In this document: positions 3,144 through 63,626 of the stretch, one piece after another
Numbering within the stretch: the first letter of the stretch is position 1
How the letters are laid out: every line of letters starts with the position of its first letter
Source of the DNA: an uncultured virus (IMG/VR IMGVR_UViG_3300022555_000014)
Taxonomy: Duplodnaviria; Heunggongvirae; Uroviricota; Caudoviricetes
Length of the DNA stretch: 64,000 nucleotides
Strand: one strand, 5' to 3'
IMG/VR virus record: IMGVR_UViG_3300022555_000014
Position numbers and translations under genes: made by a program
Notes under the pieces: generated by a model
Database searches by the model: none
Seen by the model: the letters and a program-made list of their open reading frames with translations, nothing else
Told to the model about the DNA's origin: nothing

Positions 3144-3152
3144 CTTAATTTT
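3144..3152 (+). promoter_or_regulatory. Recurrent CTTAATTTT motif, putative phage late promoter (first copy; see findings for the others)
   Basis: Exact copies at 3144, 3563, 11216, 23965, 24244, 28154, 34986, 43968, 51398 and 58626, on the + strand in or at the edge of intergenic regions. Confidence 0.65.
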
Positions 3153-6980: not shown

Positions 6981-7130
6981 GTCAAGCTACTCCGCGCTAA
7001 AGCGACGGAGCTTGCCCGCAGGGGGCTTTTGCCCAGGACGGCTGACACGCCCTGGTGGTTTCCTACCTAGGAGTTTGTTAACACGGTCGGGGTCTCCTGG
7101 GTTTAACCGCTTGCAGGTAGCCTTTTGCCT
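6981..7130 (-). ncRNA. Putative TnpB omegaRNA/reRNA scaffold (5' boundary uncertain)
   Basis: GC-rich right-end region overlapping the 3' end of tnpB and ending ...GCGCGGAGTAGCTTGAC, the established position of TnpB omegaRNAs. Confidence 0.6.
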
Positions 7131-8405: not shown

Positions 8406-9203
8406 TAGCTGTGATTTCTTAAGAGCCACGGGAAAGTTTCCTTTCACTTACCTGACTCTTAAAATTAGGTTCGAACCAAAAGTCGAAACAAGAAAAGTTT
8501 AGATTCTGGGTTTGGTTCGAATTAGTATGGAGTTGGTTAGGATTTGCTAGGAGTTTAAAGAACATGACTCTTTTGGGTTATTAGTGCCAAAGATTCTTTG
8601 GCGAGAATAGCCGAGTTGGGCAGAGGAATTCAGGGAGTCTATTTCAGAGCTTTCCTCTCCGCCCTAAAGGGCTGGAGCTTCCAGCTCGAATTTCAGTGAG
8701 AGTTCTGTTGATAAAATGCTAACGGGTGAGTGTAACTCTCATATTGGACATGTCACCTCTGATATTTGTAATGTATGTGGTACTAAGCACGAGTATTTGA
8801 TGCCCTATACCAAAGAGTTTCTATGCTCCGGTTGTGGGGCTCGTCATGTTATAACTGACAACAACGCCAAGAACGAAGTTTACTACACTATGTACAAAGA
8901 AAAGTATGGCAAACCTATCCATCCGGCCTACTATCCCAAACTCCGTCAGAAATCGTACTACACGAATCAACCTAAACTACGTCGCCAGTCTAGGTCTTCC
9001 ACCAAAAAGACGACAACTCCACTAGCCTAAATTTCTACCAATTAACTAAATAATCTAATTTTAGTTATGGTAAACTCTTTAACTAGAGTTTACCAACTTT
9101 TCTGTTTCTAATCTACCCAATAAAACTGGACGGGTTGTCATAACCCGAACTCTAGCTGCGTGCTGGAGACCTCACAAACAATTATCTAACGGGAACTTTA
9201 ACC

Positions 9204-35702: not shown

Positions 35703-35777
35703 TTGTGGTAAGCTAGGTGATAATTTTTATCTAGCTTATTTAATTTTAATAAGGTGTTAATAAGAAAGGTAAAAAGT

Positions 35778-37568
35778 ATGCACACCTCTACAGCTCTCCA
35801 AAAAATTCGGCGCACTAATGTTAAAGATAGTAAGAAGCTCCGCACCGCTGACGTTACTGATGAATCTCTACCAGGATTACAAAAGTGTCTGGATAATCCT
35901 GACTTGATACCTAACAAGAATGAACTTGAGATTTTTAAACTATTTGCTCTTAAAATTCTAGAATGTAATGTGGTACTTGGAAAAATATACAGAAACTACC
36001 CTACAGGTAAAACTCTAGAAATAGGTACAGCAGTATCCGGCGGTTACTACCAGTTAAAGCTATCTTATAATGGTAAAACTTTATTTGCTAGAGTTAACAG
36101 AATAATTGCTCAATTATGTTTCGGTCCTTGCCCTGAAGGGTTCGTAGTTCATCATAGGGATCACAACAAACTAAACAACTCTATTGATAACCTAGCTTTT
36201 GCTACAGATTCTGAAAATAGTAAAGAATCTTCCTCTAGAGAACATATTAAAGATATAATGCGCGTAAAAAGGAGTGGTGTAAACTCTCCTACTAGTAAGT
36301 TGACTACGGCTACTAAGAATAAAGCTTTTAAGTTAAAAGAAACTGGAACCTATACTAATAGAAAAATAGCTAACATACTTAACGTGTCTGACGCTGCCAT
36401 AAGTATGTTATTTAGTGGTAAGACACACAAACATGACGTTAAAAAGGTTCAGAACTCTGCTGCGATTATCCCTAAACCTATCATCCCAGTAGCTGATTTA
36501 GATAAACTTGAAGGCGAAGCTATAGAACGAGATCGTTGGCTTCTTTCTCTAGTAATATCAGGAGAGCTGCGGGTTACTAGAACAGGTAAAATATACCGTG
36601 TTAGTTCCGGTAACTGGTTAGGTTCTGTTGGTAGGACAGGTTATGTCCAAATTAGTTTACGCGATAAAGACTCTGGTAAGCCCTATACCTTTAAAGCGCA
36701 TCGTTTAATTTACCTGTGCTTTAAAGGTATAATACCAGAGGGTAAGGTTATAGACCATATTGATGACAATAAGTCTAATAACCACATTGATAATTTACAA
36801 TTACTAACGTCTAAAGAAAATACGCAAAAAGCTCACGATACTGGTTGCTTCGACAAAGCAAAAGCTTCAATGCGAAATATGGGAGAGAATAACAGTAGGT
36901 CTGTATTGACCGATGCTATTCTTGATGAAGCTAGACTTATGATAGCTTCTGGCACATCAGTTTCAGCCACAGGTAGGATATTAGGCGTTAACAGAGCTAC
37001 TTTACAAGACGCTATTTGTGGTAAGTCTTGGAGACATAGGGAAAAAGACCCGTCGATAGTGTTTAAACGCCCTAAAGTTGTACACGAAGAAGATAAAGTT
37101 ATTCTAATTCGGTACGAGTATAGGACCCAAAAGGTAAGCTACTCCGAATTAGGTAGGCGTCATGATATGCATCCTGTAACTATACGTAGAATATGTATTA
37201 GAGAGATACATAAATGCGTACTAGAGGTTGCGGCTAATGTTTGTTCTAAGTGTGGTACTCGTAAAGAAAACCTCAGCTACTATGATAAAGAATGGACTTG
37301 CGACTGCTGTAAGACTCTTCATAACCGTCAAGAGAACATTGACAAGAATGAAGCTTATTTTGAAGGTTATAGGAAAGCTTTAAAGCGGCTACCTTCTCCT
37401 GATGAATATTTACGTCTTCGTAAGAAAGACTACGCCTCTAATCGTAGGGTGTATAAGAATAATAAATTACAGCCTATGTGTGGTAAGATTAAAGGTTTAC
37501 GTAGGTTCGTACCCTCCTCTCTATTGGTGAAATATAACCATCTCAAAACAAGGACTAAATCGTCATGA
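35778..37568 (+). CDS. Double-HNH endonuclease with HTH domains and a Zn ribbon
   Basis: HNH motifs VHHRDHNKLNNSIDNL and IDHIDDNKSNNHIDNL, three HTH-like segments, and CSKCG...WTCDCC. Start at ATG 35778 behind GAAAGG. Confidence 0.85.
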   Translation: MHTSTALQKIRRTNVKDSKKLRTADVTDESLPGLQKCLDNPDLIPNKNELEIFKLFALKILECNVVLGKIYRNYPTGKTLEIGTAVSGGYYQLKLSYNGKTLFARVNRIIAQLCFGPCPEGFVVHHRDHNKLNNSIDNLAFATDSENSKESSSREHIKDIMRVKRSGVNSPTSKLTTATKNKAFKLKETGTYTNRKIANILNVSDAAISMLFSGKTHKHDVKKVQNSAAIIPKPIIPVADLDKLEGEAIERDRWLLSLVISGELRVTRTGKIYRVSSGNWLGSVGRTGYVQISLRDKDSGKPYTFKAHRLIYLCFKGIIPEGKVIDHIDDNKSNNHIDNLQLLTSKENTQKAHDTGCFDKAKASMRNMGENNSRSVLTDAILDEARLMIASGTSVSATGRILGVNRATLQDAICGKSWRHREKDPSIVFKRPKVVHEEDKVILIRYEYRTQKVSYSELGRRHDMHPVTIRRICIREIHKCVLEVAANVCSKCGTRKENLSYYDKEWTCDCCKTLHNRQENIDKNEAYFEGYRKALKRLPSPDEYLRLRKKDYASNRRVYKNNKLQPMCGKIKGLRRFVPSSLLVKYNHLKTRTKSS

Positions 37569-39957: not shown

Positions 39958-42054
39958 ATGCGTACAATTGCACGTTTAAAGTCGGTTAAACGTAAAGCTT
40001 CAGGTTTGAAGAACCGCAAGGTCAAAGTTAATTCGGTAAAAGAAGATAAGTCACTGTTAGCTGGTAGTAACTTCAAAGTTTCAGTATGTGATGAAACATT
40101 TGTCGAGCCTTCTCTTGAAGAAATTCTCCAAAGCGGATTAAAGGGTACACTTTTAGTAGAAGAGTTGCAAAAGTACAATAAGTCTGGGTTTCTTGGTGTT
40201 TCAAAATGCCTTGCTATTCCAGATTCTGTAGTACCTAAAGAGTACGACGCTATAAAGTTAGTGTTTACTGGAGTTATTGAAGTTTTCCCTGAAGTAGGGT
40301 TAATGTTTAAAAATTTCGTACATGGAAAACGTCAGGAAATAGGGCGCTCTATAAACAGGGGAGGTTATAAAACTTTTGCTAATGTTGGCAGAGACGGAAA
40401 GAAGACTATTGTGGTAAGTAGGATCATTAAACAAGTTGTGGACGGACCAGTTCCTGAGATAATGATAGTTCACCATAAGGATCATATTAAAACTAATAAT
40501 TCTATTGATAATTTAGCATTTTCTACTCAGTCAGCACACATACAAGAATCCTCTGATCGTCCAGAAGTAAAGGACGCTCTTTCAAAAGGTAGAAAGGGTA
40601 TTAAGCACAGTAATAGGGCGTTCACCGACACAGAGGCTGATGAAATTAGGCGAATGCATTACGAAGGTGGTTTTACTGGTGCTGATATAGCAATTATTAA
40701 AAATGTCCATTCTTCCACTATATGTAATATTATTAGGAACGATGATCATTACATTACACCAAAGGATTCTAGAAAACCGCCTAAACGGACACCTTCTCCA
40801 GTAACCAAGATAGCAGACTTAAAAGGAACTCCTGAGCAAGTAGCTAGAGATTCTTGGTGGTTACAGCAGGTAAGGGCTGATAACGCAAGGGTACCTAAAG
40901 AAGGTGGTGGTATTTATAATGTAAAAACAAAAAATTGGTTACAAGGAGGAGTATCTAAAGGTTATAGGTACATATCTTTAATTAACGATAAAGGTGAGTT
41001 TATAGCTATAGCTGAACATAGACTAGTTCATCTAGTATGGATTGGCCCTATAGGTGAAAAAGAGGTGATAGACCATAAAGATTTAAACACCTTAAATAAC
41101 CACATAGATAACATACGAGCGGTTACCCGTTCTGATAATACACAACTAGCCTATGATACAGGTTGTTATGATAAGGAACAGAAAGCCTTCTCTGGTAGGG
41201 GAGAAAAGTGCTATGCTAGTAAGTTAACTGAAGAGAAGGTAATTGAAATAAAAGTACTACTAGCTCAAGGAGAAACTCATAGGAAAATTGCTAAACAGTA
41301 CGGAGTTAGCATCTCAACCATTGGCTACATAGCTTCTGGTAAGCTTTGGCCTGACGTAGGAACTAAACCTTCTAATCTATGTTCTAATTGTGATCATGTC
41401 AACGAACATGTAACTATTCAAGACAGGTTCTGGACGTGTACTAGTTGTGGAATAAATCACGAGCGCGCTGAAAACAATCGTAAAAACACTGCCCGTTTTC
41501 CTATTATTATGTCTAAACCGTACTGCAAGTTAACCGAAGATAAAGTTATTTTAATGCGGTTTTTATACGCAACAACTAATCCAAATTATTCTTCTCTAGG
41601 TAGGCAGTTTAATGTTAAATGCATGACAGCAAAACGTGCTATTGATGGAGTCACTTGGTCAGAAGTTGGCAAAGTATCATCGGACGTTTGTTCAGTCTGT
41701 GGTACCAAGAACAACCTGTGCCACTATGCTAACAAAGTTGAGTTCATGTGTTCTTGCTGTCACACCCACCACATCAAAACTGACAATAACGCTAAAAACT
41801 ACCAGCAGTACGATGAGTACAAAGCTGCTAAGGGTAGACTAATAGCTCCTGATGAGTATCTACTACTGATCCAAACTGACTACACCGCTAAGCAACAACC
41901 TGCCCTTCCCAAACCCACCCAAGCCAAACAGTACCGTCAACCAAAAGGCGGAAAGGTCAAAGGGATTAAACGTCCAACATCCCAAACCTTGACTCAACTG
42001 TTCCAGTTGTCTAAAAAGTCTAAGTCACCCCAGGACGAAGTATCTAACACATAA
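39958..42054 (+). CDS. Double-HNH endonuclease with three HTH domains and two Zn ribbons
   Basis: VHHKDHIKTNNSIDNL and IDHKDLNTLNNHIDNI HNH motifs, 'KLTEEKVIEIK...IAKQYGVS' HTH, and CSNCDH...WTCTSCG and CSVCG...CSCC ribbons. Confidence 0.87.
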   Translation: MRTIARLKSVKRKASGLKNRKVKVNSVKEDKSLLAGSNFKVSVCDETFVEPSLEEILQSGLKGTLLVEELQKYNKSGFLGVSKCLAIPDSVVPKEYDAIKLVFTGVIEVFPEVGLMFKNFVHGKRQEIGRSINRGGYKTFANVGRDGKKTIVVSRIIKQVVDGPVPEIMIVHHKDHIKTNNSIDNLAFSTQSAHIQESSDRPEVKDALSKGRKGIKHSNRAFTDTEADEIRRMHYEGGFTGADIAIIKNVHSSTICNIIRNDDHYITPKDSRKPPKRTPSPVTKIADLKGTPEQVARDSWWLQQVRADNARVPKEGGGIYNVKTKNWLQGGVSKGYRYISLINDKGEFIAIAEHRLVHLVWIGPIGEKEVIDHKDLNTLNNHIDNIRAVTRSDNTQLAYDTGCYDKEQKAFSGRGEKCYASKLTEEKVIEIKVLLAQGETHRKIAKQYGVSISTIGYIASGKLWPDVGTKPSNLCSNCDHVNEHVTIQDRFWTCTSCGINHERAENNRKNTARFPIIMSKPYCKLTEDKVILMRFLYATTNPNYSSLGRQFNVKCMTAKRAIDGVTWSEVGKVSSDVCSVCGTKNNLCHYANKVEFMCSCCHTHHIKTDNNAKNYQQYDEYKAAKGRLIAPDEYLLLIQTDYTAKQQPALPKPTQAKQYRQPKGGKVKGIKRPTSQTLTQLFQLSKKSKSPQDEVSNT

Positions 42055-45689: not shown

Positions 45690-46808
45690 GTGCTGTCGGT
45701 CAGTCAATTCAGTGGGTTCAACGCTTTCTCTAATAGTAGTCCACAAGGTAACAGTAGTCCAGGAACACTTTGGGGTTGGGGCGCAAATAACGGTACGTTA
45801 GGTATGGGTAACAAAACCGCTATTATAAGCTCCCCAACCCAAATCGGCACTTCCAGTAGCTGGGTAGGTGCAGCGTGTGGATCGACTCACCTTCTTGCCT
45901 GGGATATATCTGGTAATCTATACGCCAGTGGTACTAACAACGGGTGCTTTGGTAACGGTACAACAACTTCAGTTTCTAGTTTAACTCAAGTTACAAGTAA
46001 CGTGGTTATGGCTGCGGCGGGTGACGGTTTCAGCGTCATCCTGAAGACAAACGGCACTATAATGGTAACCGGCGCTAATTCGTCATATCAGATGGGTAAC
46101 GGGGCAAATAACACCTTATCCGTGTGGACTCAGCTAGGTTCAGCGTCCAATTGGAACTTTATTTCCGCCGGGTCACAACACATACTAGCAATTAACAACC
46201 TTTCACAACTTTGGGTAGTTGGCGGTGGAACTCACGGGCAAAGTTCTTTAGGAACAACAACAAATCAATCTGTTATTACCCAAGTGGATGGTGGTACTTC
46301 GTGGCTTACAGGTGACGCAAATGCTGATGTTAACTTCTTCCTAAGAAATGACGGTGTAGGGTTTGCTTGTGGCGACAACGCTAATTATGAATTAGCCACT
46401 GGTAATAATACTAATCAGTCATCTATGGTTCAAATAGCTTTTTCAAACCCTGTTGCTCAGTTAGAAGCGGGTTACAATTTTAACTCCTACATGTTAGACC
46501 GTGCAGGTTTCATATATTCTTGTGGTAATGCTCAATACGGGGCTACAGGTCAAGGAAATACTGCAAACTTGTCCGTTTTCACGCAAATTGGCTCAAATAG
46601 TAATTGGGTTCAGATAGACGCTGGTAATGGTGCTGGTTACTTCCTAAGAAACGACGGACTTCTATTTTGTGTAGGTAACAACTCAACGCAAATGCTAGGA
46701 CTAGCTTCTGCTACTGCTAGCTTCTCCACGGTACAACAAGTTCCAGGTTCTAATTTTATACAGATAAATTCTTACAATAACTTCTGTGCTGCCATAAAAT
46801 CTACTTAA
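45690..46808 (+). CDS. RCC1-repeat beta-propeller protein
   Basis: Repeats 'LWGWGANNGTLGMG...SSPTQIG...W...AG..H.LA...G.L...G.N...LG.G'. Confidence 0.88.
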   Translation: MLSVSQFSGFNAFSNSSPQGNSSPGTLWGWGANNGTLGMGNKTAIISSPTQIGTSSSWVGAACGSTHLLAWDISGNLYASGTNNGCFGNGTTTSVSSLTQVTSNVVMAAAGDGFSVILKTNGTIMVTGANSSYQMGNGANNTLSVWTQLGSASNWNFISAGSQHILAINNLSQLWVVGGGTHGQSSLGTTTNQSVITQVDGGTSWLTGDANADVNFFLRNDGVGFACGDNANYELATGNNTNQSSMVQIAFSNPVAQLEAGYNFNSYMLDRAGFIYSCGNAQYGATGQGNTANLSVFTQIGSNSNWVQIDAGNGAGYFLRNDGLLFCVGNNSTQMLGLASATASFSTVQQVPGSNFIQINSYNNFCAAIKST

Positions 46809-54400: not shown

Positions 54401-56717
54401 TGATACTGCTACCTACGGCTCTAGCTCAGTGGTTCCTGTTATTACCGCCAATGAGAAAGGCTTAGTTACAAGTATTGGTTCGGCTACAATTACCCCTAGT
54501 GCCATTGGTGCTGCACCTTTAAGTTCTCCTAATTTAACTGGTAACCCTACCGCACCTACTCCTACAGTTACTGACAACTCTACCTCACTAGCAACGACTC
54601 AGTTCGTTCGTAACCAAAACTTTATAACAGGAGCAGCGTTATCTCCTTACGCGCTTACTGCTTCTCCGGTATTAACTGGTAACCCTACCGCACCTACTCC
54701 TACTTCTGGTGATATTAGCAATTCAATAGCTACTACAGCTTTTGTGGTTAATGAGGTAACTAGTAACCTATTGTCTGCAGTAGTTTACAAAGGTACAGTG
54801 GACATTACGGCTACGCCTCCTAGTACCCCAGCAACAGGGAATACTTGGCGGGTAGTAACAGGCGGTATTCCCAACAGCAACTACTCGTTTAGTACTACGG
54901 TAACTGTTGTTGATGTTGGTGACTATGTTGTTTACAACGGTAGTAAATGGGATCGTTTGCCTAATACTAACCCTGTAATTTCAAACGGGGCTAATATTGT
55001 TGTTGTTCCAACCGGAGATACCTCGTATTCCGTAGCGTTAGCAGCAAGCCCCTCGTTCACGGGTAATCCCACAGCACCTACACCAACTGTAACTGATAAC
55101 TCAACGTCACTGGCTACTACGGCGTTCATTCATAATCAAGGTTTCCTTACAGGAAATCAGGTTATTACCCTTTCCGGTGACGCTTCTGGCTCCGGTACTA
55201 CCAGTATTGCCGTTACTCTCAATACAGTTAATAGCAATACAGCTACGTACGGTTCTAGCTCAGTGGTTCCAGTACTTACTGCTAATGAAAAAGGTCTAGT
55301 TACTAGTATTGGAACGGCTACTATCACCCCGGCAGCCATTGGTGCGGCTCCTATTAGTTCTCCTAACCTAACAGGAAACCCAACTGCTCCTACTCCTACG
55401 GTTACTGATAATTCAACTTCATTAGCAACGACTCAGTTCGTTCGTAATCAAGGCTTCCTTACAGGAAATCAGGTTATTACGGTTTCTGGTGATGCTAGTG
55501 GATCAGGTACCACCAGTATTGCTGTTACTTTACCAACAGTCAATAATAACACAGCTACTTATGGCTCTAGCTCAGTAGTTCCTGTTATTACCGCCAACGG
55601 TAAAGGTTTAGTTACTAACATTGGTACTGTTACGATTACACCAGCCGCTATCGGTGCCGCTCCTCTTAATAGCCCAGCATTACTTGGAGTCCCTACAGCC
55701 CCAACACCTACAGTTACTGATAACTCTACTACTTTAGCTACTACAGCCTTTGTCAATACTTTGGTGAATGCTGCTATAACTTCGGGAGTAATGTACAAAG
55801 GTACACGTAACGTTACTGCGGTAGCTCCTCCAACGTCTCCTAATACTGGTGACATGTACCGTGTAACTTCTACTGGAGCGCCTTACACAGGTTGGTCCTT
55901 CAGTACGACTGTTACCGTGGTAGATATTGGTGACTTTGTTGTCTACAACGGAACAAATTGGGATCGTATAGCTAATACTAACCCTAACATTTCTAGCGGG
56001 ACTAACATTGTTGTCGTTCCAACTGGTGATACTTCATATTCGATAGCATTAGCCAGCAGTCCGGTATTAACTGGTAATCCTACGGCACCTACCGTTACGA
56101 GCACCGATAATTCCACCAGTATTGCCACCAGTGCTTTCGTAAAAAGCTTGGGTTACATTACTGGAAATCAGAGTATATCTTTGACTGGTGATGCATCTGG
56201 TTCAGGTACTACTAGCATTGCTGTAACCTTACCCACTGTTAATTCTACGACTACAGCAGTTGGTAGTAGCTCAGTAGTTCCTGTACTTACGGCTAATGGA
56301 AAAGGCTTAGTCACAAGTATTGGTTCGGCTACAATTACTCCGGTAGCTATCGGTGCAGCGCCTTTAAATAACGCCAATTTAACTGGCAATCCTACAGCAC
56401 CTACTGTTACAAGCACTGATAACTCAACTAGTATTGCCACCACTCAGTTTGTTAATACAGCAACGGCTAAGTACGTTCAGACGTTCAATGCTACTACTGA
56501 CTGGGGTGCCGTTAACGGCAGTGGATATTATACTATTTCAATAGCTGCTACTACTCACAATCGCGGTACCTACGTCATCGTTCAGGTATTCAACGGTAGC
56601 ACTAACTTTGTGGTGACGTTACCTGATAGTACCTCCGTCGATTCTTCCGGTAACGTTAGCGTTCAAGTCCCAGGAACACCTGACAACAGGTTCTCTGGTT
56701 ACCTTGTTATCTATTAA
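51465..56717 (+). CDS. Main baseplate-anchored long tail fibre (DUF3751-like N-terminus)
   Basis: N-terminal 'VITKNG...INITNFQIG...IGDFNIGNIGLFLSDGTMFSI' baseplate-attachment pattern, about 17 fibre repeats and the shared C-terminal 'FNATTDWG...THNRG...PDNRFSG' domain. Confidence 0.9.
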   Translation: MSQTVITKNGILSVFNAGANGPQINITNFQIGSDLITPDSSMPGVISSGSSGVPVYTGVPSQLSYQIVDGNNVLFKIVLDETIGDFNIGNIGLFLSDGTMFSITALSGVTLKYKTNYPTIIGNQKTYNVITQLGSLSTAIDLTLITQDEAAIPVVATELVLPPPDLAPFPVYVVNEHTIYGLPALALRVNNTWTYVSTDPVDNYGTYVSSNYIDQTVLIGSTVAWSVPRNRFIPGNGNNPTIGVIGIRGLGNKILTLGSIYEDDSGPFTPGAIYYGGDHGSLITTPTQYPVGYALNANALFVTIGGGNNSDILIGQGSIFDTPVTIASNTATSNTNFLSLVPTDFGPNNPGLYIHKDAVANNWDIKISDGTIPGSLNLDVFNVTAPTPDYNDISNSVATTEFVNARVLSLGSNILAGTFEVSLSGDASGIGVLSASDPIANVDVVLKTVNSNPTTVGSSTSIPIVTVNEKGLVTSLSSVTVAAPITSNSPVFTGNPRAPTPTVTDNSMSIATTAFVQNFFASIDLNLSGYALLASPAFTGAPTAPTPTITDNSTTLATTAFVRNYVLNSGLSNSLYAPLNSPAFTGNPTAPTTASTDNSDSIATTSFVNSVGFITSSALSPYALLSSPNFSGTPTAPTVTATDNSDTIATTKFIKSLGYTTTTPVDLSPYALLNSPNFTGNPTAPTPTVTDNSTSVATTQFIQSQGYITVASLAPYALTNSPVFTGNPQAPTVTSTDNSTTIATTQFVQSLGFLTVASLAPYSLINSPVFTGNPQAPTPTLTDNSTSLATTQFIQGQGYITSAALSPYALLISPNFTGIPTAPTPTVTDSSTALATTQFIRNQGFITGNQTTVISGDVTGFGTTAIVVTLNSVNNNTATYGSSSTVPIITANDKGLVTSIDTAIITPAAIGAAPISSPNLTGNPTAPTLTSTDNSNSIATTSFVQSMGFLTGNETVSLTGDASGTGTVSVVVTLKTVNSDTATYGSSSVVPVITANEKGLVTSIGSATITPSAIGAAPLSSPNLTGNPTAPTPTVTDNSTSLATTQFVRNQNFITGAALSPYALTASPVLTGNPTAPTPTSGDISNSIATTAFVVNEVTSNLLSAVVYKGTVDITATPPSTPATGNTWRVVTGGIPNSNYSFSTTVTVVDVGDYVVYNGSKWDRLPNTNPVISNGANIVVVPTGDTSYSVALAASPSFTGNPTAPTPTVTDNSTSLATTAFIHNQGFLTGNQVITLSGDASGSGTTSIAVTLNTVNSNTATYGSSSVVPVLTANEKGLVTSIGTATITPAAIGAAPISSPNLTGNPTAPTPTVTDNSTSLATTQFVRNQGFLTGNQVITVSGDASGSGTTSIAVTLPTVNNNTATYGSSSVVPVITANGKGLVTNIGTVTITPAAIGAAPLNSPALLGVPTAPTPTVTDNSTTLATTAFVNTLVNAAITSGVMYKGTRNVTAVAPPTSPNTGDMYRVTSTGAPYTGWSFSTTVTVVDIGDFVVYNGTNWDRIANTNPNISSGTNIVVVPTGDTSYSIALASSPVLTGNPTAPTVTSTDNSTSIATSAFVKSLGYITGNQSISLTGDASGSGTTSIAVTLPTVNSTTTAVGSSSVVPVLTANGKGLVTSIGSATITPVAIGAAPLNNANLTGNPTAPTVTSTDNSTSIATTQFVNTATAKYVQTFNATTDWGAVNGSGYYTISIAATTHNRGTYVIVQVFNGSTNFVVTLPDSTSVDSSGNVSVQVPGTPDNRFSGYLVIY

Positions 56718-56725
56718 CACTTTTA

Positions 56726-56769
56726 AGGCTAGTGTAGTCAAGTTAACCGCAGCCAACTACACTAGCCTT
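56726..56769 (+). terminator. Hairpin between fibre and endolysin genes
   Basis: AGGCTAGTGTAGT...ACTACACTAGCCT with a weak U-tail. Confidence 0.55.
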
Positions 56770-56796
56770 CATTATAACAAGAAGGAGTAAACACTA

Positions 56797-57804
56797 ATGA
56801 CTCTACAACTTACGGATGTTCAGAAAGCTACAGTTAAAGCAATTACGAGCATTCACGAAACCGACCAAATTTCTAGTCCAAAAGGTTACGCCAATGTTAC
56901 CCTTTTGGCTGGAGATAGTGGACATTTGACCTTCGGATTGTGTCAAACGACGTTATCTTCCGGGAACCTCTATTTGCTTATAAAAGCCTACTCTTCTGCG
57001 TCAGGTAAGTACTCTGATCAAATGGTTCCATACCTCTCTAGGTTGAAATCTTGTGACTTGTCTCTAGATGATGACTCTGATTTTAAAAGTTTACTACATC
57101 AAGCAGGGCTAACTGACCCAATAATGCAGGAGACTCAACGAATTTTTTTTGATAAGATATATTATCAGCCTGCTTATACAGCAGCCAATCGTCAAAATGT
57201 TACTACAGCGTTAGGCATGGCAATTGTGTTTGACGGGTTCATTCAAGGTTCTTTCAAGCGTATCAAGGACTTAACTGACGCTGACTATTCTGGCGCTGAC
57301 GAGAAAACGTGGTTTACGCAGTACGTTAACAAGCGTAAGACTTGGTTGACAAATAAGTCTGTTTTGCTCTCCTATACCGTATATCGTATGGATACGTTTA
57401 TCGCTCTGATCAAGAATAATAACTGGGATTTAAACCTTCCCTTAGTTGCTCATGGCGTAACTATTACTGAAGCAAAGCTTAATCTACCTTCAGCTACTAC
57501 TACAACACCTACACAAAATACAGATACTTCATCAACTCCTCCAGTAGAAGATACCCCTTCAAACACTGGTAAAATAACAGTTGCCACTAAAACTGGCGAA
57601 GATGACGCTTTAATGTTCGGAGCTGCCGGTGGCGCGGTTAGAGCTTTACAAATAGCATTAGTCAATCTTGGTTACTCTATCACGGTTAACGGTAATTTTG
57701 ATGATGATACCCTGTCAGCCGTAGAGACTTATCAGAACGCCAAAGGCTTAACGGCTGACGGCATTGTAGGTAACGTCACTAAGTCTTCTCTTGGACTCAT
57801 TTAA
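56797..57804 (+). CDS. Endolysin: chitosanase/lysozyme-fold catalytic domain plus C-terminal peptidoglycan-binding domain
   Basis: 'IHET...YANVTLLAGDSGHLTFGLCQTT..SGNL' and PG_binding_1-like 'VRALQIALVNLGY...GNFDDDT..AV..YQ..KGLTADGIVG..T'. Confidence 0.85.
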   Translation: MTLQLTDVQKATVKAITSIHETDQISSPKGYANVTLLAGDSGHLTFGLCQTTLSSGNLYLLIKAYSSASGKYSDQMVPYLSRLKSCDLSLDDDSDFKSLLHQAGLTDPIMQETQRIFFDKIYYQPAYTAANRQNVTTALGMAIVFDGFIQGSFKRIKDLTDADYSGADEKTWFTQYVNKRKTWLTNKSVLLSYTVYRMDTFIALIKNNNWDLNLPLVAHGVTITEAKLNLPSATTTTPTQNTDTSSTPPVEDTPSNTGKITVATKTGEDDALMFGAAGGAVRALQIALVNLGYSITVNGNFDDDTLSAVETYQNAKGLTADGIVGNVTKSSLGLI

Positions 57805-57820
57805 AGAGGAACTTAGGAAA

Positions 57821-58426
57821 ATGACCTCACCCGTATGTTCAGAAACCACGTACTCTTTGTTTGATATTGTTAAATGGACTTATATGCACTGGGACTATGT
57901 ACTATTTCTTATATCGATTCCTATATCCATAGCTGCTGTATTCTGTCGATTCGTAGCTCCTCCTAAAAACCCGAATAGTACCTTTGCTAAATTTAGACTT
58001 TTGCTAGAGTGGTTGGCTCAAAATTCACATTGGGCTGAATCCTCTTGGGTGTCTAAGGCTAAAGCTGATGGTTTACTAGACGGACCAGCCCCGCCTGTGT
58101 TGTTTACTTCGCCTGACAAGCCTGTAACTTCACCAGAGAAAGTGGTACCGACTCCGGCAACTGTTACACCACCAATAGTATCTCCTCCGTCTATACCGCC
58201 AATAGTGTCTCCTCCGTCTATACCTATTCCTCCACCTCACGTAACGCCGGTAGAACCTGCACCTGCTAAGCCCTCTACTGCTACGGATGTTACCTTGACT
58301 ATTCAGCCGCTAGGTAAAGGTGCAAAGGCCGTTGTCATTAGTAATCCTGCTAATATTACCATAAACCTTCTAAACGATGCTACTTTATCGGTAGATGACG
58401 CTATCAACGTAAAGTTAACTAAGTGA
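57821..58426 (+). CDS. Membrane protein, holin candidate
   Basis: One hydrophobic helix (YVLFLISIPISIAAVFC) and a Pro-rich tail. Lies between the endolysin and the spanins. Confidence 0.5.
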   Translation: MTSPVCSETTYSLFDIVKWTYMHWDYVLFLISIPISIAAVFCRFVAPPKNPNSTFAKFRLLLEWLAQNSHWAESSWVSKAKADGLLDGPAPPVLFTSPDKPVTSPEKVVPTPATVTPPIVSPPSIPPIVSPPSIPIPPPHVTPVEPAPAKPSTATDVTLTIQPLGKGAKAVVISNPANITINLLNDATLSVDDAINVKLTK

Positions 58427-58435
58427 GATGCGGTA

Positions 58436-58561
58436 ATGAGAATCCTCCTTTTAACACTAGCTCTGCTATTATTGTCAACTTGCACGCTTTCTGTTAGGCA
58501 TTTATCCGAAGATAATTGGTCGCCTTCTTCAGGAGAAGCTGTTGTTAAGTTGAGGTTTTAA
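58436..58561 (+). CDS. Small putative lipoprotein (41 aa; below the ORF-track cut-off)
   Basis: MRILLLTLALLLLSTCTLSVRHLSEDNWSPSSGEAVVKLRF: signal-peptide-like N-terminus with an atypical lipobox LSTC. Confidence 0.5.
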   Translation: MRILLLTLALLLLSTCTLSVRHLSEDNWSPSSGEAVVKLRF

Positions 58562-58667
58562 CTACAAACTGGCTGAGAACCTTGCCCAGTAGACCTTGCT
58601 TTTCAGCCAGTTTTCTAATTTAATTCTTAATTTTAATCATGGAACAACTAACAAAAGGACTCACGTC

Positions 58668-59165
58668 ATGTTCTCAAGCATCGCCTCTTTCTTTACCGGG
58701 GGTAGTGGTACATTACTGTCTGTTTTAGGACTTCTAGTAGTAGTCTCTGGTCTGGTAGGTTACCATTTCTACACCGTAGAGCACCTAGACGCTCAGCTAC
58801 TTCAAGCTGAAGCCAAAGCTACAGCCTTAGCTGCTGATAACGCTAAACTTTCCGTATCCAACACTAGCCTAGAGGCGGCTATAGCTCAAAAAGATCAAAT
58901 CCAAAAGGACATGCTCAAGGAGCTTAGTAACATTCGTAATAAAGACGCTGTTCTACAGAAGCAACTAGCTGAACAGCAGAAGAACCTTGAGTCAGTTGCT
59001 CACAACGCTAAGTTAGACAAAATTCGCAGCAATGACAAGGGTGCTAAGCATCTATTAGATGTTATCAACAATAACGTAGCTTGTCAGACTGCTCACTTTG
59101 GTGAAGACGGAGTTTGTAGCGACGGTACTTGGAAACCTTCCGCAGCGCCTGCTACTACTAAATAA
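58668..59165 (+). CDS. Inner-membrane spanin (Rz-like)
   Basis: ATG 58668 behind AAGGA. N-terminal TM helix, long coiled coil and C-terminal Cys pair, upstream of a lipoprotein. Confidence 0.75.
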   Translation: MFSSIASFFTGGSGTLLSVLGLLVVVSGLVGYHFYTVEHLDAQLLQAEAKATALAADNAKLSVSNTSLEAAIAQKDQIQKDMLKELSNIRNKDAVLQKQLAEQQKNLESVAHNAKLDKIRSNDKGAKHLLDVINNNVACQTAHFGEDGVCSDGTWKPSAAPATTK

Positions 59166-59201
59166 CTAGCACTAAGAAGAATAAGTTGGAAGGAGACTAC
59201 T

Positions 59202-59573
59202 ATGCGTGTACTAACTGTACTAACTGTCACGCTATCGTTAGCCGCTTGTTACAACCTAGATACTCCTAAGTCAACAGTTCGCCTTGTTACGTCCATGACC
59301 TATCCAGAGTTACCGCCGTTAGAACCTCTACCTCCACTAAACTTAGAACCTTTTAAATACGATTATCCGCGCGACTCTTCTGGTAACCTTATTCCTAATA
59401 GTAATATATTCATAGGGTTTACTCGTGAGAACTGGCAAATTTTCTTACTCAACCAAGACAAGCTAGCAATGAACAACAAAGCTTGTGTATATCGCATTGA
59501 GGAAGTGAACCGTCAACGTAGCGAGTGGCAAAAATTGGCGCAAACTGAGGCCAGTAAAGCCCGTACTAATTAA
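59202..59573 (+). CDS. Outer-membrane spanin lipoprotein (Rz1-like)
   Basis: Lipobox LAAC, a Pro-rich segment, and position directly after the i-spanin. Confidence 0.75.
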   Translation: MRVLTVLTVTLSLAACYNLDTPKSTVRLVTSMTYPELPPLEPLPPLNLEPFKYDYPRDSSGNLIPNSNIFIGFTRENWQIFLLNQDKLAMNNKACVYRIEEVNRQRSEWQKLAQTEASKARTN

Positions 59574-59606
59574 AGAGGTTCACCTTTAACAGGTGTTATA
59601 AAGATC

Positions 59607-61706
59607 ATGGCTGACGTTATTACGCCCGAAGACAATGATGACAATGACTGTTTAATTTTTGAAGAGGAGGTTCCAGAATCTACAGAGGTTCTGGAACCTT
59701 GGTATGTACTAGTCGTAGATGATGACCAAAACATCTTGGAAACTACTAAACTGTTACTAAAAGATATAAAATTTAAAGACCGTGGAGTAAAACTCCTACT
59801 GTGTCTATCTAGTGCTGAAGCTAAAACTATTTTAAATGAACAACACGCGTCTATTGCTGCTATTCTGCTAGATGTTATCATGGAAACTGAAGATTCTGGT
59901 CTTCGTTTAGTAAAATACATACGGAATGACTTAAACAACACTAGTACTCGTATTGTTTTACGGACGGGTCAGCCCGGACTTAAGTTACGACAAGATGTAA
60001 TATTTAACTACGACATCAATGGTTATAAAGACAAGGCTACGACATCCTCTCAAGACCTTGTGGACTCTGTTATCGTGGCGCTCCGAGGTTATAATGACCT
60101 AAGAACCATTGAAAAGTATAAAGATGAGCTAACTGAACTTAATAGAAGCTTAGAGAATAAGGTGCTAGCTCGTACTGAAGAAGCTAGAAAGGCTACTAAA
60201 ATAGCTGAAGACGCTAACAACTCTAAATCTATGTTCTTGGCGGCAGTCGGTCATGAAGTTCGTACTCCTATGTCAGGTATTATTTCTATAGTAGAACTAC
60301 TGGATATGACTAGTTTGACTCTTGAACAAAAAGAAATGGTACAGATAATAAAAGAGTCTACTGGTAATCTTCTAGTTATCATTAACGACTTACTTGACTT
60401 CTCAAAAATAGAAGCTAACCGGATGGACCTTGAGAAAGCTCCGGTCCTATTGTCTGATGTAGTAAGCGGTGTGTATAACACGTTACTGTCTGTGGCAAAC
60501 AAGAAAAACATAGCGTTAATTGTAGACCTTGCAAAGGATGTTAACCAGCCTATACTTGCTGACTCTGTTCGTCTTAAACAGATACTATTTAACTTAGTAG
60601 GAAACGCTATAAAGTTTACCAGTAGAGGTAAGGTTACAATAAAGCTTGAACGTTTGAGATACTCTGACACTTCTATCAAGATTAAAGTTTCTGTTACTGA
60701 CACTGGGATAGGTATATCTGAAGAGAATCAAAGAAAATTGTTCAAACCGTTTAGTCAGGCAGATTCTTCAACTGCTAGGTTGTACGGAGGTACTGGACTA
60801 GGTTTGTCTATCTGTCAAAAACTCATTACGTTAATGGACGGTGAACTGGGCTTAGACAGTACAGTGGACGTAGGTTCGACTTTTTGGTTCACTTGCACTT
60901 TTGATTTCTCAGATAATGTTACTTTCGAACGTAACTGTACTGTAGCTACTCCTCCAGTACAAAAGGCTGACAAATCTTACAGAATTCTGATTGCAGACGA
61001 CCATCCAGTTAACGCTAAGATTATAAAGGCACAGTTAGCATTACTGGGTTACAACTTAGATATCGCTACGGATGGTCTACAGGCGTTCGGTCTATGGAAA
61101 ACTGGCAATTACTCTATTTTACTTACTGACTGTCATATGCCTGTACTCAACGGCTTTGAGCTAACTGAGAGAATACGAAAAGCTGAAGGTTCAGGTAAGC
61201 GCACACCTATAATTGCAGTAACTGCTAGCTTAGACTTAGTTAAAGAGTGTTTAGCTGCTGGAATGGACTCTTACTTAGTTAAGCCGATTACTGTAGAATC
61301 TTTAAAAACCGAGTTGGATAGGTTTCTAAACATCATCACAGTAGAAACTTCAACTACTAATAGTAGTAGTATCGTTGATTTAGATAGTGTTAAGGAAGTG
61401 TTCGGTGATGACCTTGACATGTTTAATGACTTAATAGAAGAATACATCGAATGCAACCAGCGCATTCGACAAGACTTCATTGACGCACTTAACACTAATA
61501 ACGTACAGGGTCTTAAACTCCTAGGCCACAAAATCTCAGGTTCTGCCTCTACTTTAGGTATCACTAACTTGGCTGACCAAGGTACTGCTATTGAAAAACT
61601 CATCAAAGCTAATGACATTAGCACTATAACTAACCGAGTTTTTCAAATAATATCTGAGATTGATAAAGTGGAAGAGTACCTTTTAGCATACAAAAACCCT
61701 GCGTAG
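59607..61706 (+). CDS. Cytoplasmic hybrid histidine kinase REC-HisKA-HATPase_c-REC-HPt
   Basis: REC1 VDDD...LLDVIME, H-box GHEVRTPM, N-box NLVGNAIKFT, G1 DTGIG, F-box LFKPFSQAD, G2 GGTGLGL, REC2 ADD...TDCHMP...KP, HPt HKISGSASTLG. Confidence 0.95.
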   Translation: MADVITPEDNDDNDCLIFEEEVPESTEVLEPWYVLVVDDDQNILETTKLLLKDIKFKDRGVKLLLCLSSAEAKTILNEQHASIAAILLDVIMETEDSGLRLVKYIRNDLNNTSTRIVLRTGQPGLKLRQDVIFNYDINGYKDKATTSSQDLVDSVIVALRGYNDLRTIEKYKDELTELNRSLENKVLARTEEARKATKIAEDANNSKSMFLAAVGHEVRTPMSGIISIVELLDMTSLTLEQKEMVQIIKESTGNLLVIINDLLDFSKIEANRMDLEKAPVLLSDVVSGVYNTLLSVANKKNIALIVDLAKDVNQPILADSVRLKQILFNLVGNAIKFTSRGKVTIKLERLRYSDTSIKIKVSVTDTGIGISEENQRKLFKPFSQADSSTARLYGGTGLGLSICQKLITLMDGELGLDSTVDVGSTFWFTCTFDFSDNVTFERNCTVATPPVQKADKSYRILIADDHPVNAKIIKAQLALLGYNLDIATDGLQAFGLWKTGNYSILLTDCHMPVLNGFELTERIRKAEGSGKRTPIIAVTASLDLVKECLAAGMDSYLVKPITVESLKTELDRFLNIITVETSTTNSSSIVDLDSVKEVFGDDLDMFNDLIEEYIECNQRIRQDFIDALNTNNVQGLKLLGHKISGSASTLGITNLADQGTAIEKLIKANDISTITNRVFQIISEIDKVEEYLLAYKNPA

Positions 61707-61730
61707 GCTTAGTTAGCCTACACAGGGTTT
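61696..61730. terminator. Hairpin overlapping the kinase stop codon, between convergent genes
   Basis: AACCCTGCGTAGGC-TTAGTTA-GCCTACACAGGGTT. Confidence 0.7.
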
Positions 61731-61734
61731 GGGA

Positions 61735-61929
61735 TCAAAGGTCTTTCCGAATAGCACTAGGAAGGATTGATATCTTCTCGTTATTAAGAAAACCCATCCT
61801 ATTAAGCCGTTGTAGCATGCTAGTTTGCCCTAAAACAAAATAAGCGTCCATTAGCTGGTGCTGCTGACTAATCAATTTGTTCTTGTTAACAACTGTAAAC
61901 CTCACTAAATTCCATAGCTTCTCTAACAT
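61735..61929 (-). CDS. Hypothetical protein
   Basis: 64-aa ORF with an AAGGGTG RBS-like sequence upstream. Confidence 0.5.
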   Translation of the reverse strand: MLEKLWNLVRFTVVNKNKLISQQHQLMDAYFVLGQTSMLQRLNRMGFLNNEKISILPSAIRKDL

Positions 61930-61946
61930 CAGTATACACCCTTGTT

Positions 61947-61986
61947 AAAAATAGCCGGTTGGATTCGAATCCAACCGGCTATTTTT
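61947..61986. terminator. Perfect 40-bp palindrome, probable bidirectional terminator
   Basis: AAAAATAGCCGGTTGGATTC|GAATCCAACCGGCTATTTTT, right after the stop of 61991..62584(-). Confidence 0.85.
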
Positions 61987-61990
61987 CTAT

Positions 61991-62584
61991 TTAAACCGTG
62001 GGAATTGGACGATCTTTTTGAATACCAGGGAATACAGAGTTAAAGTCCCTGTAGTAGTCCTTGTACCGATCTGGGTACCTATAGGTTTTCTTTACATAGT
62101 TGGGAGGCAACTCGTTTAAAAACTCAACGGAATCCCAATTACGTGCTGTTGGGTAGGCGTAATAAGGATACTGCTGCTTAACCCCGCGCACTACAACAAC
62201 ATTTATAGACTTGTTGTTGGTCTTAGCGTAGGTTACCCTATGTAAGCCGTCGTTGATTAGTAGTACTGTCTTACCGCCCGCCTCAAAGGACTCCTCTACT
62301 ATAGGAGGTAGGACTGGAATACTTTCTCCGTTCCAGTCTACGTAGTGGTCTTTAGTTAGGCGTGTAACATCAATGCCTTTCTCTAAAAGGGATTCCCACA
62401 AGGATTTCTGAGCTTCTAGAATAGGCTTGAGCACATAGTTCTGACAAACAGTTAGATCGTTAGGATTCAACCGCTCCAGGCTGAAATCACAATTTTCGTA
62501 AACTAAGTGACGGTCAAAACCCTTCAAGGGAACTTGACGTAACTTTGTAAACAGACCTAAAGTTTCTACGCGAGTAATAAACAT
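61991..62584 (-). CDS. ParB/Srx-fold-like protein of unknown function
   Basis: 'LPPIVE...LLINDGLHRV' resembles the ParB/Srx DGxHR motif. AAAAGGA RBS. Confidence 0.55.
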   Translation of the reverse strand: MFITRVETLGLFTKLRQVPLKGFDRHLVYENCDFSLERLNPNDLTVCQNYVLKPILEAQKSLWESLLEKGIDVTRLTKDHYVDWNGESIPVLPPIVEESFEAGGKTVLLINDGLHRVTYAKTNNKSINVVVVRGVKQQYPYYAYPTARNWDSVEFLNELPPNYVKKTYRYPDRYKDYYRDFNSVFPGIQKDRPIPTV

Positions 62585-62596
62585 AGTTTTTCCTTT

Positions 62597-63343
62597 TTAA
62601 GAATCTAAACAGGTAAGTAGTTGGTATAGGCTGTTAAGCCTGCAGTGCATCCTACTAGACTGCACAAAGTTATTGAACTCGTCGTTGTCATACAGTAAAC
62701 CGTCACTAGCCATATTAGCCATATGAGCCATAACACTTTGTTTGTCCAAGCTAGTACCGGCTCTTGGAATCCAAATAGCTTTGATTCCCGCGTCATTAGC
62801 TGCTTGTATATCACTGTCTAATGAGTCACCGATCATTAAGCAGTCTTCAGACTTAGCTTGAAGTTTATTAAGTACTACATCGTAGTAGCATTTAGACTTA
62901 ACAAAACCTAGCTTATAACTGAAAAAGTCTAAAGAAGCGTCACGGTCACCGAAGAATAGATCAAATGCTTCTACAAACGGTCGCCAATTGTCACTAACAA
63001 AAGCTACTGTATAGCCTGCTTTCTTGGCGGCTTCTACAGTTTCAATAGCGTTGAGGATAGGCTTAGACAAAAATAGCTGGTTAGTCCATACCTTCTCTAA
63101 CGCCGCCGTAGGAAACTGGTACGGGTAGTTAGGATTACTGTTAATTATGTCAATTAGCGGCCTAACTAGCGCAACAGTACTGTAAGCTTCAGTAGTCATC
63201 AATAGATGTTTTAGTTTAGGCTCTACCTCGGAAGGTAAACCTAGAAGCTTGGCTAAATACTTAGCAGGAGGAGCGTTAAGCCCCTCCATTAAAGTACTGC
63301 CGATGTCAAACAGCAGAAACTTAGGCATTACACTACCTTTCAA
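62597..63343 (-). CDS. HAD-superfamily hydrolase
   Basis: Motif I FDIGSTL, motif II VSDN, motif III K, motif IV MIGDSLDSDIQAANDAG. Confidence 0.85.
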   Translation of the reverse strand: MKGSVMPKFLLFDIGSTLMEGLNAPPAKYLAKLLGLPSEVEPKLKHLLMTTEAYSTVALVRPLIDIINSNPNYPYQFPTAALEKVWTNQLFLSKPILNAIETVEAAKKAGYTVAFVSDNWRPFVEAFDLFFGDRDASLDFFSYKLGFVKSKCYYDVVLNKLQAKSEDCLMIGDSLDSDIQAANDAGIKAIWIPRAGTSLDKQSVMAHMANMASDGLLYDNDEFNNFVQSSRMHCRLNSLYQLLTCLDS

Positions 63344-63626
63344 AGGTATCAGGCAAACAAGAATTTACGGGTAAAGCTTCAATATCCTTAGCTAGACGCA
63401 CACCTATGGCCCAACCATGATATTGTTTGCTTTTCTGATGAACCTCAGAGATAGCTTTATCCCTAAAGTTAATCTGACCTTGTTGATAGAAAAACACCCG
63501 GTCGTCATCTAAACAAGTAGTTAGCGTCTCAAACTTGAGATTTTGATTTCTCAGAAAAGCTAGCTCTGGTTTAGTTACTGTCGTGTAGTTTAGCAAACCT
63601 AACAAATAGTTTAACACTGTTAGCAT
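63333..63626 (-). CDS. Hypothetical protein
   Basis: 97-aa ORF in a translationally coupled minus-strand run, with a GAGGAGG RBS. Confidence 0.6.
   Translation of the reverse strand: MLTVLNYLLGLLNYTTVTKPELAFLRNQNLKFETLTTCLDDDRVFFYQQGQINFRDKAISEVHQKSKQYHGWAIGVRLAKDIEALPVNSCLPDTFER

Follow-up and report, generated by a model that had tools for sequence, protein, structure and literature searches.

We analysed a 64,000-nt stretch of DNA from an uncultured virus (IMG/VR record IMGVR_UViG_3300022555_000014), referred to here as the window, and followed up the gene at 59607..61706 on its plus strand, which begins with ATG and encodes a 699-residue hybrid phosphorelay kinase. The predicted protein has the domain order REC-HisKA-HATPase-REC-HPt with no frameshifts and no lost motifs, and judged by sequence it has every feature of a hybrid multi-step phosphorelay kinase of the HisKA class. 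The gene is the last of the plus-strand structural/lysis block and stands at a convergent module boundary. We consider it reasonably probable that it is an accessory gene of a freshwater jumbo phage and that its product, a trimmed protein made late in infection and directed at the host, is a hybrid kinase that is soluble, competent for catalysis and gated by a receiver, and that has an HPt domain built in. The original prediction, made from the letters of the window, had described a complete kinase of this layout with its motifs intact, and both the Pfam domains and the presence of all phospho-acceptor and ATP-box residues bear this out.

Pfam recognises two Response_reg stretches in the kinase, HisKA at residues 207-270, HATPase_c at 319-430 and Hpt at 609-688, and all domains described below are encoded on the plus strand. 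The N-terminal receiver, REC1 (59700..60047, residues 32-147), is of a DUF3369-associated receiver subtype and carries D38/D39, D89, T120 and K143. Scored alone with Pfam it lies narrowly above the cutoff (32.1 bits against 30.2), and phmmer with REC1 alone found no match in the PDB. A profile of seven N-terminal segments (alignment A1) matched CheY-type chains (1.4e-8) and placed the acidic pair, acceptor Asp, Thr and Lys of REC1 opposite theirs. Over A1 and a 46-row alignment of homologues (A3), residues M92, E93, G98, L99, R119, T120, G121, Q122, I137, Y140 and K143 of REC1 are invariant or near-invariant, and its own profile scores 178.5 bits on the kinase. REC1 is followed by a helix that continues into DHp helix 1 (residues 148-233, including H216-E217) and by DHp helix 2 (239-269), the whole segment spanning 60048..60413 as delimited by the AlphaFold2 model and HisKA. 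The H-box reads H216-E217-V-R-T-P within a strong HisKA match (4.5e-18) and aligns to solved kinases; H216-E217 is invariant in 46/46 rows of A3. The catalytic ATP-binding domain (60438..60908, residues 278-434; HATPase_c 2.5e-28) has intact boxes, namely N333 (N), D365-G367-G369 (G1), F379 (F) and G395-G397-G399 (G2). The second receiver, REC2 (60981..61349, residues 459-581), is supported by Pfam, by solved hybrid kinases, with which it aligns together with the kinase core, and by the AlphaFold2 model; its key residues are D464/D465, D508, T539 and K559. At the C-terminus, the HPt helical bundle (61380..61694, residues 592-696) is recognised by Pfam Hpt when scored alone (2.1e-8; 34.7 bits, clearly above the cutoff of 24.6) and in the model, and its H641 falls in the His column of Ypd1-type and BarA HPt chains and is invariant in a five-row alignment (A2). 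Throughout A3 the key residues are mostly invariant, D38/D39, D89, T120 and K143 of REC1 among them, D464 (E464 in most rows) and T539 being nearly so, and F18 and W32 are conserved in at least 90% of the family.

The Kyte-Doolittle maximum over 19 residues (KD19) is 1.45 and falls within a strand of REC2; compared with values of 2.07-2.37 in the neighbouring membrane proteins, this means that the kinase has no transmembrane (TM) segment. Pfam found no sensor domain, and only signalling domains were recognised, with no membrane- or peptidoglycan-acting domain among them, so that the earlier description of a kinase without TM or sensor region holds. The AlphaFold2 model (mean pLDDT 84, pTM 0.51) is confident for REC1, DHp, CA, REC2 and HPt. 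In the model, the last helix of REC1 and the helix that carries H216 form a single helix of 86 residues (148-233). The acidic N-terminal tail is predicted to be disordered (pLDDT <50 at residues 1-25), and residues 435-458 form a short low-confidence linker. The intact active site of REC1 and the modelled helix leading from it into the H216 helix favour the earlier proposal that input would arrive through the N-terminal receiver.

The kinase gene is a genuine phage gene, with phage genes on both sides. The window is the first 64 kb, in the same coordinates, of the 89,242-bp metagenome contig L001, which spans both junctions of the gene. The exact kinase protein occurs on 23 contigs, the longest of 254,081 bp, and the figures for the endolysin are identical; such equal contig figures fit a jumbo phage sampled as a single genotype. 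The stretch is present in eight public DNA runs from three lake/freshwater studies. Contigs of two runs from two of the studies, both flagged as possible sources of the window, carry 55000-61976 in one piece with 0 differences, and an independent low-coverage run from the third study has a contig covering 59050-59672 that bridges the spanin-kinase junction, also with 0 differences. A chimeric contig at ~59.6 kb was rejected as an explanation because the 59573/59607 junction is thus bridged without differences in runs of three studies. Among the 22 genes with 300 aa or more, the kinase comes 4th in closeness of codon usage to the remainder of the window; its GC content (38.3%) and GC content at third codon positions (GC3; 32.9%) are both inside the window range, and its tetranucleotide correlation is 0.79 (window range 0.66-0.90). 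The resemblance in codon style to neighbouring genes that had been noted at the outset is therefore real. That the gene is an assembly artefact, a chimera with host DNA or a decaying passenger gene is extremely improbable. The public contigs do break at 61947-61986, ~240 nt past the kinase, but they break only there; the site is a perfect palindrome, the overlapping pieces match, and depth on its two sides is alike (26.5 vs 28.4 and 54.7 vs 48.8). A break at a perfect inverted repeat with equal depth is as expected of a short-read assembler. The bridged upstream junction, the crossing of both junctions by L001, the phage-like composition and the lack of frameshifts or lost motifs all argue in the same direction.

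Close relatives of the kinase are lacking in the collections searched. Among 1.84 billion proteins, no representative with at least 50% identity was found beyond the kinase itself. A near-identical host chromosomal gene, which the original prediction had named as a finding that would refute it, did not appear, and identity to any cellular or viral sequence did not exceed about 45%. In species genomes the closest full-length relatives are 37-39% identical, with single segments reaching 53% in Azospirillum. Megablast of 56700-63400 against GenBank phages gave no match, and tblastn with the kinase gave 191 records there, many of which are contigs of bacteria deposited under phage; coverage stayed under 80% of the query and identity below 60% in all of them. 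IMG/VR scans with the kinase and with ParB-CE, encoded beyond the kinase, returned no usable relative, and the scan with the endolysin returned one tblastn relative; against GenBank phages the endolysin was matched in its PG-binding domain only (9 records, at most 23% coverage). The nearest metagenome relatives matching from the N-terminal receiver to REC2 (L002-L006, 34-37%) are REC-HK-REC genes, and L005, which was scanned with Pfam, lies in a plain bacterial chromosome where DnaX, RecR, RNase D, Lon and MiaE adjoin it. The search for phage versus bacterial homologs proposed earlier thus yielded relatives that, where seen, are cellular, and no close phage homolog in GenBank phages or IMG/VR. 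The kinase has the marks of a moron-like accessory gene: its closest relatives with a seen name or context are all cellular, it lies at a module boundary with its own hairpin, and it serves no core phage function.

The same five-domain layout is present in three compact proteins (P0195, P0200 and P0190), two of which are near-identical to genes of Thiotrichaceae and Rhodospira metagenome-assembled genomes, and these are 34-36% identical to the phage kinase. The nine most similar rows, at 43-44.5% identity over ~669 shared columns, are all ~1000-aa DUF3369 kinases of Azospirillaceae type. In a 47-row maximum-likelihood tree obtained by a quick search, the kinase is sister to P0122, a kinase of this type (SH-aLRT 98). 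The pair is nested in larger sets of 10 and 18 rows (support 99 and 96, respectively), whose named members all belong to Azospirillaceae. Loci entered the tree if their open reading frames (ORFs) had both the receiver signature and the H-box, and 8 rows shorter than 500 aa (L026, L030, L033, L036, L037, L039, L040 and L041) were left out. BLASTP aligns the kinase with P0122 in three colinear blocks (REC1 43%, DHp-CA 48%, REC2-HPt 37%) that skip residues 193-331 of P0122 and the stretch between its CA and REC2 domains. The first of the skipped regions corresponds to DUF3369, a GAF-like domain that Pfam places at 166-334 in P0122; in the phage kinase PF11849 (DUF3369) has no Pfam match, and the AlphaFold2 model has one helix there. 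Between CA and REC2, a receiver profile finds a degenerate receiver in the relatives (P0026 612-716, i-E 2.8e-6; weaker in P0122 and P0003), which is absent from the phage kinase, where the linker of residues 435-458 takes its place. The amino acid composition has also shifted, with GARP residues at 17.5% and FYMINK residues at 28.5% in the kinase, compared with 35-38% and 13-16% in the relatives. From these comparisons we infer that the kinase descends from Azospirillaceae-type REC-DUF3369-HisKA-HATPase-(degenerate REC)-REC-HPt kinases, and that both accessory domains would have been cleanly lost after an old capture from a bacterium that was followed by long amelioration. Its recoding to the AT-rich composition of the phage points to an old resident rather than a recent pick-up. 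The five-domain layout that the phage kinase has in common with the compact proteins looks convergent, arising through domain loss.

The Azospirillaceae-type REC-DUF3369 hybrid kinases of ~1000 aa (P0122, P0003, L042 from Azospirillum picis, and L054) are an uncharacterised group. They share with the phage protein the REC1 subtype, with the signatures LLDV.ME..D.GL, RTGQPG and YDIN.YK, and an acidic N-terminal tail with F18 and W32, whereas the phage protein differs in lacking DUF3369 and the degenerate receiver, in its composition and in residing in a phage genome. The compact REC-HisKA-HATPase-REC-HPt proteins (P0195/Thiotrichaceae L024, P0200 and P0190/Rhodospira L027) have nearly the same domain coordinates and invariant key residues, but fall in other parts of the tree and are cellular where named. 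BarA/GacS, TorS, ArcB, EvgS and RcsC share the relay chemistry of HisKA-HATPase-REC-HPt with the phage kinase; they are membrane sensors without an N-terminal receiver, whereas the phage kinase has no membrane-anchored sensor region. All NCBIfam models listed for named unorthodox kinases, LuxQ included, scored far below their cutoffs, the best being BarA (378 vs 890), with TorS at 359.5 vs 676.5. The best solved match is the chain named 'Hybrid kinase' in PDB entry 6qrj (E 5e-59), which we take to be the soluble, c-di-GMP-activated Caulobacter kinase ShkA. It shares a soluble DHp-CA core followed by receivers, and differs in having a middle receiver-like stretch before the true receiver and, in the chain, neither an N-terminal receiver nor an HPt domain.

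Histidine kinases are already known from phages; what is new here is a trimmed, complete receiver-gated relay kinase with an HPt domain in a phage. Several PHROG families match the protein, the best being phrog_20458 (2.9e-122, residues 187-576). A 735-kb phage (LR756501) encodes a soluble PAS-PAS-HisKA-HATPase-REC kinase that is likewise a phage-borne core, but has PAS sensors and neither an input receiver nor HPt, its 32% identity being confined to the core. This 737-aa protein (L103, 4924-7137) adjoins a GH16 protein in an unannotated huge-phage genome. According to the accessible portions of two reports, histidine kinases precede the curli clusters of pelagiphages (PMC9599517), and two-component proteins, regulators among them, are 'well represented' in phages that infect ammonia oxidisers (10.64898/2026.05.02.722434); a REC-gated, HPt-bearing kinase is not mentioned in those portions of either. 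In its available text, a survey of 224 jumbo-phage genomes mentions histidine kinases once, the divergent cREC never being found with them (PMC7824862). We found no description of a receiver-gated HPt-bearing phage kinase, or of one in a spanin operon, in the literature searched. The original statement that such kinases are uncommon in phages thus needs dividing: histidine kinases as such are reported from phages and match PHROG families, while this architecture occurs in no phage collection that we searched. DUF3369 itself is described, in the part of the source at hand, as a GAF-like cytoplasmic domain with unknown ligand that occurs mostly as REC-DUF3369-HD-GYP; some histidine kinases and diguanylate cyclases have it too, and Azospirillum is named among the carriers of DUF3369 kinases (10.1101/2021.11.05.467447). 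A link of the phage kinase to c-di-GMP would be associative, by analogy with the HD-GYP/GGDEF proteins in which, on the same partial evidence, this REC subtype and DUF3369 are common (10.1101/2021.11.05.467447). Among viral sequences, the sole IMG/VR match of A2 is a regulator gene at 3783-4916 of a P2-like viral contig (L022; portal, terminase, GPO scaffold and P2 capsid), which lies beside the portal gene and encodes a receiver of the DUF3369-associated subtype, 34% identical to REC1, fused to LytTR.

Transcription signals around the gene suggest how it might be expressed. The preceding endolysin unit is closed by a terminator-like hairpin on the plus strand (58566..58613) with a 14-bp stem and then a U-rich run; the fold of 58540-58640 has z = -2.52, with 1/200 shuffles as good. 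A promoter-like motif follows at 58621..58645 (+), its strict core TTAATTTTA at 58627-58635 lying 41 nt before the i-spanin ATG. It is a copy of a recurring intergenic element with the approximate form a-(a/t)-(t/c)-C-TTAATTTT-R-nTTGTA (about aAtCTTAATTTTRnTTGTA). The window contains 13 copies of the strict core, TTAATTTTR, where 2.6 are expected, and 0/100 shuffles reach 13. Twelve of the 13 copies are on the plus strand and 11 of the 13 are intergenic, intergenic DNA accounting for ~6.3 of the 64 kb (lengths summed by hand). Copies of the motif (coding-strand positions 3145, 3564, 11217, 19467, 23966, 24245, 28155, 34987, 35740, 51399 and 58627) lie mostly 14-222 nt 5' of plus-strand genes, many of them for tail fibres, and often right after a T-run hairpin. 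The motif that had been singled out at 58626 thus belongs to a family that is strand-specific, lies mostly in intergenic DNA and elsewhere precedes tail-fibre genes. Between the 58627 copy and the end of the kinase gene no strict copy was found, and the 33-nt spacer between o-spanin and kinase (59574..59606, +) has no stable fold (z = +1.08) and no promoter-like motif, in keeping with the earlier observation that the kinase starts 33 nt past the o-spanin stop without a terminator in between. The hairpin reported right after the gene overlaps the stop codon of the kinase (61694..61730, +; -27.6 kcal/mol for the folded 61-nt stretch, z = -5.3, 0/200 shuffles as good). Roughly 240 nt past it, a perfect 40-nt palindrome with A/T-run flanks (61947..61986, unstranded) folds well on either strand (z = -7.0 on plus, -5.7 on minus) and is a candidate bidirectional terminator between the plus and minus modules. 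A generic scan for sigma-70 promoters and terminators performed at chance level (15 sites vs 15.8 expected and 2 vs 5.7, respectively) and missed the folded hairpins.

Because neither motif nor terminator intervenes between the 58627 motif and the kinase, late co-transcription of the kinase with the spanins is a reasonable and plausible reading. The unit would comprise the promoter-like motif, i-spanin, o-spanin, kinase and hairpin, and since its motif also precedes tail-fibre genes, the kinase is most likely late, made by read-through from the spanin genes. Once made, the kinase could receive a phosphoryl group on D89 of REC1 from a host kinase, a host HPt protein or acetyl phosphate. Phosphorylated REC1 would then act through the long helix into DHp and switch autophosphorylation at H216, after which the phosphoryl group would travel along H216, D508 and H641 to reach a response regulator with no gene in the vicinity, most likely one of the host. 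With neither the GAF-like domain nor the middle receiver, the kinase would be free of its ancestral control, and phosphorylation of REC1 would be the only input left. In this manner the phage can probably tap host signalling. If made late, the kinase might also be packaged in the virion and act in the next infection.

Several observations weigh against this picture of a late, host-directed accessory kinase. The ribosome-binding site of the kinase is weak (AGGTG in the spacer, 11 nt 5' of the ATG), the hairpin at its stop codon is trailed by just three U, and none of the 8 public runs that contain the stretch is RNA, which says nothing either way on expression. Profiles of REC1, DHp-CA, REC2 and HPt built from homologues, run over 1051 segments in six frames of 71.7 kb (the window and L001; below one third of the genome, whose size is at least 254 kb), matched only the kinase itself; no REC, HPt or kinase partner was therefore found in any frame, and the cognate REC genes that the original prediction had suggested looking for were not among the 71.7 kb scanned. 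Neither the relatives of TnpB (one close relative, 91% identical, on 24 contigs, the named ones below 30%), nor those of the endolysin, which are scattered over many phyla, nor a tRNA scan pinpointed a host. No related phage with the kinase, endolysin or ParB-CE was found in GenBank phages or IMG/VR. As to the origin, the branch of the kinase in the quickly searched tree is long (1.75) and its composition deviant, and the rows of the tree came from a word-based seed search, which may be biased towards some lineages. An approximately unbiased (AU) test rejects the kinase and the compact proteins as one clade (p = 3e-7), a result of little weight, given that this group was defined once the tree was known and does not form a clade alone.

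Other roles can be proposed for the same set of domains. The protein has three phospho-acceptor modules and no sensor, both accessory regulatory domains are lost, and there is no output regulator nearby, all of which would suit a phosphate sink or decoy that drains or blocks a host phosphorelay and silences a stress, defence or motility response. REC1, REC2 and HPt would then accept host phosphoryl groups, or DHp would pair with a host kinase, and a phage protein acting on host two-component systems is described in the accessible portion of a published report (PMC10714779). We nevertheless regard such a role as rather unlikely, because the kinase boxes and H216-E217 are fully conserved (46/46 rows) and a pure sink needs none of them. 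Lower still is the probability we give to a circuit internal to the phage, in which a partner kinase and/or regulator elsewhere in the genome would let the relay control phage genes. Cognate two-component pairs are usually neighbours; here no partner is adjacent and nothing points to one. Such a circuit gains from the limited part of the genome scanned for partners, from the REC-LytTR fusion of the same subtype on the P2-like contig L022, and from two-component proteins, including regulators, in some phage genomes, as reported in the portion of the source available (10.64898/2026.05.02.722434).

The position directly beside the spanins, with probable co-transcription, could suggest that the relay reads the state of the host and sets when holin, endolysin and spanins act. 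However, the kinase lacks any membrane or peptidoglycan domain as well as a DNA-binding output, production alongside the spanins would leave it late for regulating their transcription, and a convergent module boundary next to a bidirectional terminator is typical for acquired genes, so that we hold a lysis-timing device to be very unlikely. The original prediction had also considered lysis timing; nothing ties the kinase to it, and the gene sits at the junction of two convergent modules, which would be a usual place for acquired genes. Its position is best read as an insertion there, not as a role in lysis, and its link to lysis is probably positional. A further reading, which we think unlikely, is a late-infection checkpoint run by the phage itself, in which the kinase, rid of its ancestor's ligand-binding domains, would read the phosphorylation state of the host by way of REC1 and drive a host regulator by way of HPt. 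Inputs might then come from a host stress or envelope kinase, or from acetyl phosphate as an energy gauge, and the output might restrain a host response, for instance defence, dormancy or motility, or adjust when lysis occurs. We found no case of a phage-encoded multi-step phosphorelay node with input and output port in the literature searched.

Phages are known to take metabolic genes, and occasionally signalling genes as well, from their hosts. With a kinase that combines receiver gating and a built-in HPt domain, a phage would gain an input port to bacterial two-component networks as well as an output port. The gene is a concrete candidate for work on the manipulation of host signalling by large phages. 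The gene also illustrates remodelling after capture, in that accessory domains appear to have been cleanly removed and the phosphotransfer chain kept, and the phage copy may serve as a natural minimal version of the unstudied REC-DUF3369 kinase family. If late co-expression with the spanins is true, signalling at the end of infection may matter for lysis, for neighbouring cells or for the next infection.

The genes upstream of the kinase fit a lysis cassette. All are on the plus strand, beginning with an endolysin candidate (56797..57804) that matches Pfam Glyco_hydro_46 (8.9e-15) and PG_binding_1 (5e-14) and PHROG endolysin families (~1e-12). A proline-rich, single-TM holin candidate of 211 aa (57791..58426; KD19 2.37 at residues 37-55) overlaps the end of the endolysin gene and has no family match in Pfam, PHROG or NCBIfam. 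Between it and the hairpin ending the endolysin unit lies a 41-aa ORF (58436..58561) with a signal-peptide/lipobox-like start, MRILLLTLALLLLSTC, possibly a small lipoprotein. The i-spanin candidate of 165 aa (58668..59165, with ATG 58668 as the likely true start) has an N-terminal TM segment (KD19 2.07, residues 16-34) and a coiled-coil body, and matches Rz-like PHROGs weakly (phrog_89 2e-4, phrog_739 7e-4). The o-spanin candidate of 123 aa (59202..59573) is lipoprotein-like, with the signal/lipobox-like start MRVLTVLTVTLSLAAC and a strong GGAG-type ribosome-binding site, and has no family match in Pfam, PHROG or NCBIfam. PADLOC gave one weak ATPase-domain match (PDC-M43B, 1.2e-7), which we read as generic GHKL similarity; Rfam had no match in 56-64 kb, and no tRNA genes were found.

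Beyond the palindrome, the convergent module on the minus strand starts with the ParB-CE domain protein (61991..62584; Pfam PF24392, 1e-30) and continues with a HAD hydrolase, small ORFs, a thymidylate-synthase-like protein and six genes without a Pfam match. The thymidylate-synthase-like protein is fused to pterin-binding DUF4346 (L001 14737-16275, contig 64343-65881), and together with 61991-63343 its gene makes the minus-strand module resemble a nucleotide or DNA-modification cluster. On the other side of the lysis cassette, 209-56717 is occupied by an unusually long tail-fibre-like run, in which at least 10 genes show repeated fibre motifs; it encodes proteins of 1788, 1467 and 1750 aa, and the gene of an RCC1-repeat protein (45690-46808) also lies in it. 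Interspersed among the tail-fibre genes are HNH endonuclease genes with HTH domains (6032-7000, 35754-37568 and 39958-42054), two of them with doubled HNH, and an IS605 OrfB/TnpB-type gene on the minus strand (6987-8447). Tandem ~27-nt repeats (CTAAGACGTGAGCTTAGGTGAATATCTT and a close variant) fill 1-208 and, after the first tail-fibre gene, 1700-1839.

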